A stretch of DNA of 28,077 bases, taken from positions 1-28,077 of the forward strand of contig JAJXVW010000001.1 of the NCBI GenBank assembly GCA_021781935.1, given 5' to 3'. The position numbers and the translations under genes were made by a program. The notes below the pieces were generated by a model that was given only the letters and a program-made list of their open reading frames with translations, ran no database searches and was not told the DNA's origin. The stretch is from a bacterium. GTDB taxonomy: Bacteria; Patescibacteriota; Minisyncoccia; Phycocordibacterales; Phycocordibacteraceae. Below are positions 2,852 through 22,351 of the stretch, one piece after another; within the stretch, counting starts at the first letter, position 1, and every line of letters begins with the position of its first letter.

Positions 2852-4315
2852 ATGCAATTCCGCGTTCCGGAGGAGGTCAGTAAAGTTTCAGGGACGCTGA
2901 GGACGGCCGGGTACGAGGCGTATCTCGTGGGCGGCTGCGTCCGCGATCTCCTCATCGGTCGGGAGCCGAAAGATTGGGATGTGACGACCAACGCCACCCC
3001 CGAGCAGATGCAGGCCCTGTTCCCCGAGTCCTTTTATGAGAATGACTACGGTACCGTGGGCGTGAAAACCGGGTCTGGAGACGAACGAACCGAGATAATC
3101 GAGGCGACTCCCTACCGCCTTGAGTCTGAATACTCTGACCGTCGTCGGCCGGACACGGTCGCATTCGGGACTTCGCTGCTGGAGGACCTTGCTCGGCGCG
3201 ACTTCACCATCAATGCGATAGCTCTCGATGAGTCAAAAGGACAAATCGTGGATCCATATGAGGGACAAAGGGACATAAAGGACAAGATACTCCGCACGGT
3301 GGGTAATCCTACGGAGCGCTTTGGCGAGGATGCGCTGCGCATGATGCGCGCCGTTCGACTTGTTGCCGAGCTGGGGTTCGGGATCGATGGCGATACGGCG
3401 GCGGCAATTGCCAATAATAGTAAGCATTTAGGCCATGTTTCACGTGAAAGAATTCGTGATGAGTTTGTGCGCATCCTAAAGTCTAGCCAACCCATGGAGG
3501 CGCTCGTCCTCTGTAACCGACTGGGACTGCTTGAGTTCATCGTTCCGGATCTCATTCGCGGCATTGGTGTGAGCCAGAACCAAGCGCATTCCTATGATGT
3601 CTTTGAACATAATCTCCGCACGATGCAGCACGCCGCGGATAAGGGCTGGTCCTTCGATATTCGTCTTGCTGGGCTTTACCACGACATCTCGAAGCCCGAG
3701 ACCCGACGCTGGTCGGACGAAAAGAGGGACTGGACCTTTCATGGACATGACGTGGTTGGTTCACGTGTAACAAAGAAGGCACTCGAAGACCTACGCTTTT
3801 CACGCGAAGCAATCGAAAAGATCGTCAAGCTAGTCCGTTGGCACATGTTCTTCTCGGACCCGGACCAAGTGACTTTGTCCGCGGTACGCCGAATTATAAC
3901 GAATGTAGGCACCGAGAATATCGACGATCTCCTCAAGCTCCGTATCTGTGACAGAATCGGAACTGGTCGGCCAAAAGAGCAGCCGTTTCGGCTCCGTAAA
4001 TACATGGCCATGGTAGACCAGGCGCTTCGCGATCCAATTTCAGTCGCAATGCTGAAGACTGATGGGAATCGCATCATGGAGACGTTCCACGAGAAACCTG
4101 GGCCAAAGATTGGCTTCCTGCTCCATGCGCTCCTCGAAGAGGTTCTCGATGATCCAACGCGAAATACGGAGCAATATCTCGATGCGCGCACTGAGGAACT
4201 CCGTAAGCTTCCCGCTGCCGAGCTTAAGGCACTCGGGGAAGCCGGTAAGAAGGCACGTGAAAAGCGTGAGGACGAGGAAGTCAGGGCAATAATGGAGCGG
4301 CACCACGTCTGCTAA
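2852..4315 (+). CDS. cca: tRNA nucleotidyltransferase (CCA-adding/poly(A) polymerase family) with HD domain
   Basis: LVGGCVRDLL, KDWDVTT, RRDFTINA, EDALRMMRAVR, SRERIRDE and LYHDISKP motifs. Confidence 0.92.
   Translation: MQFRVPEEVSKVSGTLRTAGYEAYLVGGCVRDLLIGREPKDWDVTTNATPEQMQALFPESFYENDYGTVGVKTGSGDERTEIIEATPYRLESEYSDRRRPDTVAFGTSLLEDLARRDFTINAIALDESKGQIVDPYEGQRDIKDKILRTVGNPTERFGEDALRMMRAVRLVAELGFGIDGDTAAAIANNSKHLGHVSRERIRDEFVRILKSSQPMEALVLCNRLGLLEFIVPDLIRGIGVSQNQAHSYDVFEHNLRTMQHAADKGWSFDIRLAGLYHDISKPETRRWSDEKRDWTFHGHDVVGSRVTKKALEDLRFSREAIEKIVKLVRWHMFFSDPDQVTLSAVRRIITNVGTENIDDLLKLRICDRIGTGRPKEQPFRLRKYMAMVDQALRDPISVAMLKTDGNRIMETFHEKPGPKIGFLLHALLEEVLDDPTRNTEQYLDARTEELRKLPAAELKALGEAGKKAREKREDEEVRAIMERHHVC
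3436..3451. promoter_or_regulatory. parS-like site inside cca (TGTTTCACGTGAAAGA)
   Basis: One mismatch to the ParB/Spo0J consensus TGTTNCACGTGNAACA. Confidence 0.6.
3757..3772. promoter_or_regulatory. parS-like site inside cca (TGGTTCACGTGTAACA)
   Basis: Reverse complement TGTTACACGTGAACCA has one mismatch to the consensus. Confidence 0.6.
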
Positions 4316-4324
4316 AGCTGAATT

Positions 4325-4377
4325 TGTTACACGCGAAACAATCAGTCAGGTGGGGAGCAATCGTTTCGCGTGTAACA
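4325..4377. promoter_or_regulatory. Two inverted parS-like sites (TGTTACACGCGAAACA 4325-4340; CGTTTCGCGTGTAACA 4362-4377)
   Basis: 1 and 2 mismatches to the consensus; together they form a perfect 15-bp inverted repeat. Confidence 0.6.
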
Positions 4378-4403
4378 TTACTATGTGAAACTACTATAGA
4401 GAA

Positions 4404-4726
4404 ATAAGAAGACCGCCCAAGGTTGGCTAGGCGGCGAAAGAGCGGGGGGCTTTAATTAGTGCCTAGGCCAGGAGAAATAGGGCGGTCTCTTGAATGTGCT
4501 TCGCTGTAGCGCGAATCCTGACTCATCTTTGTAAGAGCGGATACGCCGCGATGACCGTTAGTAGGTTCGCGAACAGGAGAGCTACGGATCGGAATGTGCT
4601 AGAAGGAACAACTCGAAAGAGAGGCGCCGAAAACTCAGGGCTCATCTCTCCTCCTTCATGCAGGATACTCTCGTAAAAGACAATGTAAATACGGTAGCTG
4701 TGGATATTGTCTTTTAGGAATGTCCT
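4404..4726 (+). ncRNA. Unidentified structured RNA candidate
   Basis: No credible ORF; TACTAT -10 at 4392-4397; nested stems with bulges and G-U pairs; CTC-GAAA-GAG tetraloop; repeated GAATGT(G/C)CT linkers. Boundaries approximate. Confidence 0.55.
4675..4715. terminator. Hairpin AAAAGACAAT…ATTGTCTTTT, probable bidirectional terminator (xth and the candidate RNA)
   Basis: 10-bp inverted repeat with A/T tracts on both sides, 15 nt beyond the xth stop. Confidence 0.5.
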
Positions 4727-4730
4727 TTAT

Positions 4731-5528
4731 TTATTCCAAATCGAGTGAGACAGGGCAGTGATCGGAGCCCATGATTTCAGGATGGATGTCCGCACGTTTC
4801 AAGTGCTTTGCGAGCGCTGCGCTCGCGAATATGTAATCGATGCGCCACCCTACATTACGCTCGCGAGCATGCTGCCAGTGGCTCCACCAGGTGTATTTTT
4901 CAGGTTCGTTCGGGTGGAAATGGCGGAACGTGTCGATAAAACCGGCCGTTTCCATCTTATCCGCTCCTTCGCGTTCTTCCTTTGTGTAGCCATGCTCTCC
5001 TTCGTTCTGCTTCGGGTGAGCGAGATCGATGGGGTGGTGGGCGACGTTCAGATCGCCGCAGAAAATAACGGGTTTTTCCTCCTCGAGGCGCTTCATGTAG
5101 GTAAGGAAGGCAGGATCCCACTGCTTGTGGCGCAATGGAAGCCGGGATAGGTCGTCTTTAGAATTCGGGGTATATACCGAGACTATCCATATCTTTCCCG
5201 TGTCGAGCGCGATGACACGACCTTCTTCGTTCAGGTCGCCATAGCCATCATCGTCGAGCTTGTACTTCTTCGCGATATCTTCCGGGATGCCGTAAAGGAC
5301 ATTCTCCGGCGTCCCCTTGTAAAAGATGGCCGTGCCGCTGTAGCCTTTCTTCTTGGCCGAATTCCAGAATTCTTCGTACTCAGGGAGATCGATAGGGGAC
5401 TGGTGCTGCTCAGCCTTCGTCTCCTGGAGGCAGACGACGTCCGGCTTGAGTTTCTTCAGGAAGGGAGCGAATTCTCCCTTCTTGCATACGGCTCGGATGC
5501 CGTTCACGTTCCACGAAACGATTCGCAT
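4731..5528 (-). CDS. xth: Exodeoxyribonuclease III / AP endonuclease
   Basis: MRIVSWNVNGIRA, CLQETK, EGRVI, CGDLNVAH, GWRIDY and GSDHCPV motifs. Confidence 0.96.
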   Translation of the reverse strand: MRIVSWNVNGIRAVCKKGEFAPFLKKLKPDVVCLQETKAEQHQSPIDLPEYEEFWNSAKKKGYSGTAIFYKGTPENVLYGIPEDIAKKYKLDDDGYGDLNEEGRVIALDTGKIWIVSVYTPNSKDDLSRLPLRHKQWDPAFLTYMKRLEEEKPVIFCGDLNVAHHPIDLAHPKQNEGEHGYTKEEREGADKMETAGFIDTFRHFHPNEPEKYTWWSHWQHARERNVGWRIDYIFASAALAKHLKRADIHPEIMGSDHCPVSLDLE

Positions 5529-5790: not shown

Positions 5791-6705
5791 TTACCGTTTC
5801 GAATGGAAGCGCTTATGGATCTCGCGCAGGTGAGCGTCGGTGACGTGTGTGTAGATCTGGGTCGTATTGATCGACGCATGGCCCAGGAGCTGTTGTACGG
5901 AACGGATGTCCGCACCGTTCGAGAGGAGGTCGGTTGCGAAGGAATGACGCAGTACGTGCGGCGTTACCTTCTTCGTAATGCCGGCCATTGCCGCGTACTT
6001 TTTGATATGCCGCTGGATATCACGGGGCGTGATGCGGTGAAGCGACTTGGGGCGGCCGTCGACGAAGAGCGCTTCCTCCATGTCCGTGCGGGCTTTCAGA
6101 TAGGCGCGCACGGCCTCCTTTGCTGAATCTGAAAGGAATACGACCCGGACTTTCTCGCCCTTGCCGCGCACCGAGAGGTCATCGCGCGCGAGGTCGAGGT
6201 CGCTGTCGAGGCCGCAGAGTTCGGAAACGCGCAATCCGGTAGAGAAGAGGAGCTCAAGAATAGCCCTATCGCGCAGGAGAGCGAGCCGTTTCCACTCGTC
6301 CTTCTCGGTAACCAGCGCTTTTGCGGGAGCTCCCATAAGACGGTCAAGTTCCGAGTTTGAGATGAGGTCGAGATGGCGTTCGGGCAGCTTCGCGAGCTCG
6401 ATGCGTTCCGGGGATATGCCGTCGACCCCGCGTTTCCGAAGGAATTTGAGGAAGGCGCGTAGTGCGATCATGTAATAGTTCTGGGTGCGGCGCTTCATCG
6501 AGTCGCGCCCGGAACCGGGCTGGCGGTTCAACCACATGCGGAAGTCGCGGATGTTCTGTTCAGAGATGTCCGCAACCTTCCGTATCTCCATCTGCGCAAA
6601 ATAGCGGGTGAGATAGCGATCGTAGTTTTCGACCGTCTTCACGGCGCGACCGCGCTCGATTTCTATGTATTCGAGAAACTGGCGTTTCGCTGACTCGGCG
6701 TCCAT
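5791..6705 (-). CDS. xerC: Tyrosine recombinase, XerC/XerD family (likely start MDAES…, not 6909)
   Basis: Full catalytic set: STGLRVSEL, VRGKG, HVLRHSFAT, LLGH, TQIYTH. TGT-TATCCT -10 box 7 nt before ATG 6705. XerC versus XerD not resolved. Confidence 0.88.
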   Translation of the reverse strand: MDAESAKRQFLEYIEIERGRAVKTVENYDRYLTRYFAQMEIRKVADISEQNIRDFRMWLNRQPGSGRDSMKRRTQNYYMIALRAFLKFLRKRGVDGISPERIELAKLPERHLDLISNSELDRLMGAPAKALVTEKDEWKRLALLRDRAILELLFSTGLRVSELCGLDSDLDLARDDLSVRGKGEKVRVVFLSDSAKEAVRAYLKARTDMEEALFVDGRPKSLHRITPRDIQRHIKKYAAMAGITKKVTPHVLRHSFATDLLSNGADIRSVQQLLGHASINTTQIYTHVTDAHLREIHKRFHSKR

Positions 6706-6847
6706 TGCGTTTAGGATAACACTCATATTGTGCGCACATTCACGCAATCTGAGCGGATTCGAGGGCGGCCGGGGCTGCTGTCGGCCCCGGCTGTGGGGAC
6801 TCCGGCACACTTGCGCGATTTGGCAAGGTGTGGTAAGGTTCCCGCAC

Positions 6848-7114
6848 ATGCTTACCACTAAGAAAAAGGCGGCAGTAATAAAAAATGCCGCCCGCCACGA
6901 TGCGGACACCGGTTCTCCGGAGGTTCAGGTCGCGCTGCTTTCCAAGCAGATCGATGAGCTGGCCAAGCATTTGAAGCATAATCCGAAGGATTTCCATTCG
7001 CGCCGGGGGCTCTTGCAGATGGTGGCCGATCGCCGCTCGCACCTGCGCTATCTCGAGAATAACGACAAGCGGAAATATAACGCGGTCGTTAAGAAACTGG
7101 GATTGAAGAAGTAG
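6848..7114 (+). CDS. rpsO: 30S ribosomal protein S15 (true start ATG 6848)
   Basis: HDADTGSPEVQVALLS and DFHSRRGLLQMV motifs, 88 aa. Confidence 0.97.
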   Translation: MLTTKKKAAVIKNAARHDADTGSPEVQVALLSKQIDELAKHLKHNPKDFHSRRGLLQMVADRRSHLRYLENNDKRKYNAVVKKLGLKK

Positions 7115-22233: not shown

Positions 22234-22249
22234 ATCTTCGGATGAAGAC

Positions 22250-22279
22250 AAAAAACCGCCCCCTCGGGGCGGTTTTTTT
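22250..22279 (+). terminator. Intrinsic terminator after rpsG
   Basis: AAAAAACCGCCCC-CTC-GGGGCGGTTTTTTT. Confidence 0.85.
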
Positions 22280-22351
22280 GTATTAAGGATTTCGTGCCAA
22301 GCGCGGCGCGTCCGGCGTACCCTACTAGGAAGCTCTTTACGGGTGGATGTC

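Follow-up and report, generated by a model that had tools for sequence, protein, structure and literature searches.

What occupies the 415-nt gap that separates the convergent genes cca and xth in the genome of an ultra-small patescibacterium of the family Phycocordibacteraceae? The gap lies within positions 1 to 28,077 of contig JAJXVW010000001.1 (assembly GCA_021781935.1); this whole stretch of 28,077 nt is called the window here, and all positions refer to it. An original prediction had placed in the gap a multi-domain structured RNA on the plus strand, running from a promoter at 4392 to an end at 4726 and built of three modules joined by repeated linkers. Our analysis bears out a stand-alone, conserved and structured non-coding RNA (ncRNA) that is transcribed and stands beside parS; the strand, the promoter, the ends and the linkers as first proposed did not hold. 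We estimate a probability of about 0.8 that the gap contains a single-copy, minus-strand gene for a structured ncRNA of approximately 255 nt, which is driven by a promoter and ends in a hairpin (helices P1 and P2) followed by a U-run. The predicted RNA extends on the minus strand from about 4655, a start predicted from the −10 hexamer, to about 4398, with the 3′ end near 4398–4402 in the U-run. Two covariance models match it, both on the minus strand: model R2, made of the 5′ part and the central domain B, at 4492–4655 (50 bits), and model R1, made of the 3′ domain A, at 4399–4499 (64 bits).

Conserved secondary structure

Alignment of the gap with its counterparts in relatives revealed a shared element of 215–330 nt, with the strongest block adjoining xth and with stems that change on both sides. 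Helices P1, P2, B2 and B3 covary across 20–24 homologs from the genus. The element is a structured RNA with a conserved secondary structure. Its 5′ part is rich in pyrimidines and has little structure, its central domain is branched, and its 3′ part is a long hairpin. In the window, the interval is more stably folded than its dinucleotide shuffles on either strand (z of −3.6 on plus and −3.2 on minus). The motifs from which the three modules had been assembled all sit where they were said to be, and the comparison with relatives separates those that belong to the conserved structure from those that do not.

The 3′ domain A (4406–4491, minus) corresponds to the first module and contains P1 (4410–4418/4480–4488) and P2 (4424–4432/4461–4470). 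The pairings AAGAAGACCGCCC (4406–4418) with GGGCGGTCTCTT (4480–4491) and TGGCTAGGC (4424–4432) with GCCTAGGCCA (4461–4470) are present as proposed, and compensatory changes in relatives confirm them. In domain A, 90.6% of the cells are paired, compared with 82.3% in shuffles, and the covariation score is 0.392 against 0.227 (reached by 0 of 500 shuffles). Ten of its 16 pairs have changes on both sides, and P1 is 99.4% paired.

The central domain B (4500–4590, minus) holds the core of the second module, which is made up of B2 (4517–4523/4560–4565; CCTGACT with AGTAGG) and B3 (4537–4549; GCGG/CCGC). Both helices show compensatory changes in relatives, where B2 takes the form yCUGCC with GGCAnGr and B3 the form GCGR-loop-YCGC. 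Pairing reaches 89% in B2, where C-G is exchanged for U-A, and 92.5% in B3, three of whose four pairs show compensatory changes. The closing helix B1 and the helix B5 of this domain are less certain. Domain B as a whole is 81.0% paired compared with 76.1% in shuffles, with a covariation score of 0.213 against 0.137 (0/500). When the partners were slid along each other as a control, pairing fell from 81–91% to 32–64%. On the raw gapped alignments RNAalifold recovered no helices other than P1 and B3, and it succeeded after mostly-gap columns had been removed.

The apical loop of domain A (4433–4460, minus) spans approximately 28 nt and is C-rich and anti-Shine-Dalgarno-like. It reads GCCCCCCGCUCUUUCG here and ACGCCCCUGCUCCUUUU in the genus consensus, which can also be written GCCCCUGCUCCUUUU or CACCAUCnnACGCCCCUGCUCCUUUU; its columns are nearly invariant in alignments A1 and A3. 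The 5′ part carries a boxA-like pyrimidine motif, UGUUCCUUC (4602–4610, minus), and relatives have a tandem GUUCUUUC.

The remaining motifs lack such conservation. The hairpin of the third module (4612–4652, minus) is an insertion specific to this genome in alignments A1 and A2. The supposed linkers GAATGT(G/C)CT (GAATGTGCT at 4492 and 4592, GAATGTCCT at 4718), the second of the two CAGGAGA copies (4469 and 4574), and the pseudoknot between AGGAGAG (4575–4581) and CTCTCCT (4646–4652) are all present as quoted and are not conserved in 23 relatives. By a rough estimate, about 0.2 exact 9-mer repeats are expected by chance in a stretch of some 330 nt. A different pseudoknot, between the 5′ end and the apical loop (AGGAG with CUCCU), appears by eye to be possible in several homologs and not in L038, and we do not claim it.

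Strand, promoter and terminator

The RNA is read from the minus strand, opposite to cca and to the earlier proposal. A promoter scan of 4250–4800 called a single sigma-70-like promoter, on the minus strand, with the −35 hexamer TTTACA at 4684–4689 and the −10 hexamer TATCCT at 4662–4667, separated by a 16-nt spacer. The −35 hexamer is kept both within the genus and by other families of Paceibacteria, and the −10 columns (A...TA on plus) read TAnnnT on minus in all 24 homologs. Approximately 10 nt upstream of the −35 hexamer lies a DnaA-box-like 9-mer (4699–4707, minus), ATATCCACA, which has one mismatch to TTATCCACA. The perfect TTATCCACA, the consensus DnaA box, is found at the same position in most of the 24 homologs, and some Paceibacteria have tandem boxes. 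The DnaA box and both promoter hexamers keep a fixed spacing.

Beyond the DnaA-type box on its upstream side, the 9-mer TAAARGACA (minus reading) occurs twice, at 4708–4716 and 4721–4729, as a putative operator; these copies make an inverted repeat with a further one at 4674–4682. TGTCyTTTA repeats and the DnaA-box-like site are both found just upstream of the promoter. In relatives, the upstream order of TAAAGGACAC, DnaA box, GTGTCCTTTACA, nn and GTCCTTTA is almost invariant. The conserved block reads, on minus, TAAAGGACAC, TTATCCACA, GTGTCC, TTTACA, 16 nt that include another TGTCCTTTA, and TAnnnT. Two side observations concern these elements. The exact 9-mer TAAAGGACA also occurs inside cca (3276–3284) and xth (5293–5301); together with the copy at 4721–4729, this places three of its five copies in the genome in a region of about 2 kb that surrounds the RNA promoter. 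Most of the rRNA leaders inspected in relatives (L202–L207) have an ordinary promoter of the form TTGACG, N17, TATAGT and lack the block of TGTCCTTTA and DnaA box.

At the other end, the only terminator called in 4250–4800 is likewise on the minus strand. All homologs have P1 followed by UUUnUUGUUU on this strand, and all end in GGGyGGyUUUnUUGUUU. Domain A doubles as the intrinsic terminator of the RNA, and it is probably also the plus-strand terminator of cca. The TACTAT (4392–4397) that had been taken for a plus-strand −10, with a start near 4404, lies in the U/A-rich tail of this terminator (U-rich tail after P1, 4396–4405, minus), and no promoter was called there. The supposed 3′ end at 4726 falls in the region of the promoter and putative operator, and the hairpin at 4667–4712 is the promoter and putative operator itself.

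The wobble pairs of P1 agree with this assignment. Read on minus, P1 contains 15 G·U cells and a single A·C in the reduced full-length alignment of 24 sequences, and nine G·U with no A·C in alignment A3 (20 sequences). Since the G·U pairs of P1 on minus would be A·C mismatches on plus, the minus strand is favored. The wobble pairs of B1 point in the same direction, and a census of all predicted pairs in the reduced full-length alignment gives 61 G·U on minus against 29 A·C. No conserved reading frame was found among the 24 homologs. A promoter and an intrinsic terminator of its own, a discrete transcript and the lack of a conserved open reading frame (ORF) mark the element as a stand-alone small RNA (sRNA) gene.

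Expression of the RNA

The window comes from a metagenomic study of mine drainage, to which the metatranscriptome X4 also belongs; the window is contained in three DNA runs. In X4, 56% of the sampled words of 4380–4740 are present, compared with 15% of those of 4000–5200. Over 4200–4900, a single RNA contig of 222 nt was found, identical to 4415–4636 and with a word depth of 6. The cca and xth flanks in this range have zero depth in X4, though DNA coverage is even throughout. As the flanks are silent in X4 while the DNA run is even, DNA carry-over is not the explanation, and the confinement of the X4 contig to the RNA means that the RNA is more abundant than the neighboring mRNAs. It is a discrete transcript that accumulates well above the flanking mRNAs, and expression of the interval, as originally proposed, is therefore borne out.

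Distribution among relatives

With model R2, exactly one match per genome was found in 76 of 121 genomes of the genus (63 of 93 high-quality genomes), beside cca wherever this was checked. The copy in the window scores low, at 50 bits, and is thus a divergent member. BLASTN of the gap against 60 relatives had low sensitivity: matches were found in three genomes and were limited to the 70 nt on the promoter side. Model R1 was uninformative as a distribution probe, as it matched generic terminators on both strands in other families. It also matched the window at 22242–22286 (plus, 33.6 bits), which is probably an ordinary intrinsic terminator.

The promoter reaches further than the RNA body. The promoter block (AAGGACAnnGTAAAGGAC with the adjacent DnaA box) was found as an exact match in about 25 further Patescibacteria records, labeled Paceibacteria, Kaiser-, Adler-, Taylor- and Nomurabacteria. 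In these records it precedes an ORF-poor stretch of approximately 250–450 nt that differs in sequence and contains a GUUCUUU-type motif. The terminal hairpin loops in these other Paceibacteria families often read CCUCC or CUCC when inspected by eye. Fourteen loci with the same type of promoter from other Paceibacteria gave only tRNAs when compared with Rfam. Across the class, the promoter 21-mer was found in 28 of 401 genomes when two mismatches were allowed, and the reversed control pattern gave about 13 hits, a signal too weak for mapping the distribution.

Comparison with known RNA families

The RNA matches no described family. At gathering scores, Rfam 15 recognized only two tRNAs in the whole window, and at E ≤ 10 only two chance microRNA hits in 4250–4800; the absence of an Rfam match had been anticipated. 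Literature searches for 6S RNA, SRP/Ffh and non-coding or structured RNAs of the Candidate Phyla Radiation or Patescibacteria brought up nothing relevant.

The common housekeeping RNAs were considered individually. The RNase P RNA of this genome is encoded elsewhere, at C25:5183–5520 (125.5 bits). For transfer-messenger RNA, ARAGORN found none in the window, and five near-complete relatives have theirs elsewhere (86–110 bits). 6S RNA is a long closed rod with paired 5′ and 3′ ends and a large central bubble; the present RNA has three successive domains whose ends are not paired with each other, and RF00013 gave no match. 6S RNA was not detected in the window genome or in five near-complete relatives.

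The RNA of the signal recognition particle (SRP) was rejected as well, with no match to RF00169 or RF01854 and no SRP proteins found. The Ffh M domain (PF02978) was found in none of 41 genomes of the genus, the SRP54-type GTPase domain of Ffh or FtsY (PF00448) in none of 61 genomes from 25 families, and SRP-GTPase sequence motifs nowhere in the window assembly. The same tool found DnaA in 24 of 24 other genomes of the genus, which serves as a positive control for these negatives. As a side observation, the SRP pathway was thus not found in the window genome and 60 relatives (25 families of the order). An order-wide loss of SRP and FtsY in free-standing bacteria would be remarkable if true.

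Genomic context and parS sites

The source assembly is a metagenome-assembled genome of 524 kb in 66 contigs, with 60% G+C and a completeness of 90%. The gene cca (2852–4315, plus) encodes a PolyA_pol head domain and an HD domain, and xth (4731–5528, minus) a protein of the exonuclease III family. The order of cca and an opposed xth, with a gap of 310–500 nt, recurs in most of 30 loci from the same genus. The position of the RNA gene next to cca is simply conserved gene order; we found no support for a link to tRNA maturation or for a ribozyme role. A gene for a XerC/XerD-type tyrosine recombinase lies at 5791–6909 (minus), approximately 260 bp from the start of xth, and no dif-like site was recognized in the cca–xth gap.

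parS-like sites are found in the neighborhood, as had been stated. Two inverted parS-like 16-mers (4325–4340 and 4362–4377) lie between the stop codon of cca and the terminator of the RNA and are not part of the RNA; two more are inside the cca coding sequence (3436–3451 and 3757–3772). Of the six parS-like sites in the whole assembly, four fall in 3436–4377. We also observed that in most homologs of the genus the Bacillus-type parS 14-mer GTTCCACGTGAAAG is inside the RNA gene itself, where it forms hairpin B5 (e.g., L016:1193–1312; A2 columns 189–210). In the window and a few relatives, parS has been lost from the RNA gene, and the hairpin is kept with another sequence.

The RNA locus is 25–57 kb from dnaA in relatives, and dnaA is on no contig of the 90%-complete window assembly. 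In relatives (L242–L249), the ATG of dnaA follows a TATACT −10 at approximately 8 nt, with no Shine-Dalgarno sequence, and in one of them a DnaA box covers the start. This arrangement of the sequence suggests that the dnaA mRNA of relatives may be leaderless and autoregulated.

Possible function

A function can be proposed tentatively. The RNA may be a trans-acting riboregulator resembling RsaE/RoxS or CcnA and tuned by DnaA; on the present analysis, we regard this as a possibility well short of an even chance. Base pairing of the exposed C-rich loop (GCCCCUGCUCCUUUU in the genus) and of the UCUUUC repeats with purine-rich ribosome-binding sites would alter how the target mRNAs are translated. 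Synthesis of the RNA would be tuned by DnaA and by a factor bound at the TGTCCTTTA repeats, and its level could report the status of replication initiation from an origin-proximal locus. The conserved, unpaired C-rich motif needed for such pairing is present, and the 3′ end of the 16S rRNA is not assembled in the window genome. For control by DnaA, the box is conserved and DnaA is encoded in relatives.

The features shared with RsaE/RoxS of Firmicutes are a stand-alone gene that brings its own promoter and intrinsic terminator, and conserved C-rich motifs that are unpaired, complementary to GGAG-type ribosome-binding sites and in one case located in the loop of the terminal hairpin. The RNA differs in having no sequence or covariance-model similarity to them (all Rfam families scanned), in being about twice as long and in belonging to another phylum. 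Further differences are the branching of its central domain, a promoter with a DnaA-type box and the boxA-like repeats.

CcnA of Caulobacter crescentus is an ncRNA from the origin region whose promoter has a site for a master cell-cycle regulator, and it is proposed to free or hide ribosome-binding sites (PMC8959179). CtrA is thought to tune this origin-encoded RNA (PMC8959179). The likeness to our RNA is that of an origin-proximal ncRNA with a replication-regulator-type site in its promoter, and CcnA offers a precedent for a riboregulator at the origin that targets ribosome-binding sites. The differences are that the regulator of CcnA is CtrA, not DnaA, that there is no homology, and that the present locus is 25–57 kb from dnaA in relatives, with the origin unmapped.

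The raiA motif, OLE, ROOL and GOLLD RNAs are comparable in that they too are known by conservation and covariation, are restricted to clades, and have no assigned biochemical function. In contrast to them, the present RNA is smaller (~255 nt), has a clear promoter and terminator, apparently evolves fast beyond one genus, and matches none of their models. DnaA-regulated promoters include those of dnaA, mioC and nrdAB in E. coli and of sda in B. subtilis. The present promoter resembles them in the DnaA box placed just upstream of the −35 at a conserved position, in tandem in some relatives. It is unlike them in driving an ncRNA and in the additional conserved 9-mer repeats that flank the putative box.

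Some observations speak against a regulator of this kind. The window genome itself has a degenerate loop motif (GCUCUUUC) and a DnaA box with one mismatch. The ribosome-binding site of dnaA was dropped as a candidate target, as the leader is apparently absent in relatives and dnaA is not in the assembly. R2 also had no match in 150 genomes from other genera of the order; this restriction to one genus means either that the RNA body evolves fast or that the RNAs behind like promoters in other families are not homologous to it.

Alternative explanations

The alternative that survives best accepts a real RNA and lets it act through a protein, as a decoy or carrier for NusB/NusE by way of the tandem boxA-like motifs or as a 6S/Ms1-like partner of RNA polymerase, or else as a mimic of the 16S rRNA 3′ tail. 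We consider it unlikely, and about half as probable as a trans-acting riboregulator. The boxA of rRNA leaders in the genus, located approximately 80–125 nt upstream of 16S (six genomes, L202–L207), reads UU(C/A)UUUGAAA(A/G)AC, and the tandem GUUCUUUC has its UUCUUU core. The loop CUCCUUU resembles the anti-Shine-Dalgarno tail, abundance above neighboring mRNAs is typical of housekeeping RNAs, and the non-detection of 6S RNA also speaks for this alternative. However, the likeness to boxA is confined to the core, the boxA tail GAAAAC is absent in the genus, and by eye a better-looking match is seen in a Taylorbacteria-type locus. The fold departs from the closed rod and central bubble that define 6S RNA, and a body that is not conserved beyond the genus is unusual for the partner of a universal protein.

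Very improbable is a plus-strand RNA that would start at about 4404 behind TACTAT and end at about 4726 in the hairpin AAAAGACAAT/ATTGTCTTTT. The evidence that weighs against the minus strand is best considered here. The minimum free energy in the window is lower on plus (−118.8 vs −99.7), as it is in 17 of 24 full-length comparisons of homologs, and minimum free energies, taken whole and by domain, leave the strand undecided. The minus-strand RNA of the window folds at a z of only −1.96. Helix B5 has 21 A·C cells on minus, which are G·U on plus, and the supposed 3′ hairpin shows G·U on plus in five homologs when judged by eye. The bias of B5 can also be explained by the parS site written into the gene, because the Bacillus-type parS consensus itself holds that asymmetry. 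The X4 contig is strandless and stops 15–19 nt short of both predicted minus-strand ends. Against the plus-strand RNA, its 3′ side would lack 90 nt in the same contig, which stops at 4636. No promoter or terminator was called for it, its supposed 3′ hairpin is a promoter in which the distance between −35 and −10 is conserved, and the wobbles of P1 and B1 favor minus.

A marginally weaker proposal, to which we give very little weight, is that conservation acts on the DNA only, as in a centromere- or origin-related region, and that the transcript is an incidental by-product. The parS cluster at 3436–4377, the parS-like 14-mer inside the RNA gene of relatives, the DnaA box, the 9-mer repeats and the distance of 25–57 kb to dnaA in relatives would all fit such a region. 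Binding sites do not explain, however, why paired positions 70–100 nt apart change together, nor why the hairpin is kept with another sequence where the internal parS was lost. The RNA is also discrete and more abundant than its neighbors. Genes at origins usually point outward, and here cca and xth converge on the gap, the opposite of the usual layout.

A small-protein gene is hardly credible: a 40-codon ORF (4523–4645, minus) does follow a perfect AAGGAGG 4 nt before its ATG at the 5′ end of the RNA, and a 60-codon ORF (4494–4676, plus) is also available, but the plus-strand ORF has no Pfam hit, the ORFs of the 24 homologs vary in frame, strand and length with neither window ORF matching any of them (the 40-codon ORF is in none of the 23 relatives), and alignment indels break the reading frame.

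Biological meaning

The locus is a conserved, covariation-supported and expressed RNA gene, situated in the parS cluster of the chromosome and equipped with an unusually conserved promoter with a DnaA-type box. It is a candidate for a new Rfam family, and the recurring "empty" gap between cca and xth merits annotation as an RNA gene in the orientation opposite to that of cca. Hardly any regulatory RNAs have been described from the Candidate Phyla Radiation, whose tiny genomes are generally regarded as poor in regulation. The locus offers a testable entry point to a possible coupling of replication or segregation with gene expression in these organisms. In its boldest form, which we consider doubtful and less probable than the general proposal of a riboregulator, the RNA would be a Paceibacteria-specific, origin-proximal riboregulator under the control of DnaA. 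The anti-Shine-Dalgarno-like loop of this abundant RNA would throttle the translation of a set of genes, and its body would double as a ParB-binding parS in relatives. If true, this would be an RNA link between chromosome replication or segregation and protein synthesis in minimal cells with few known regulators.

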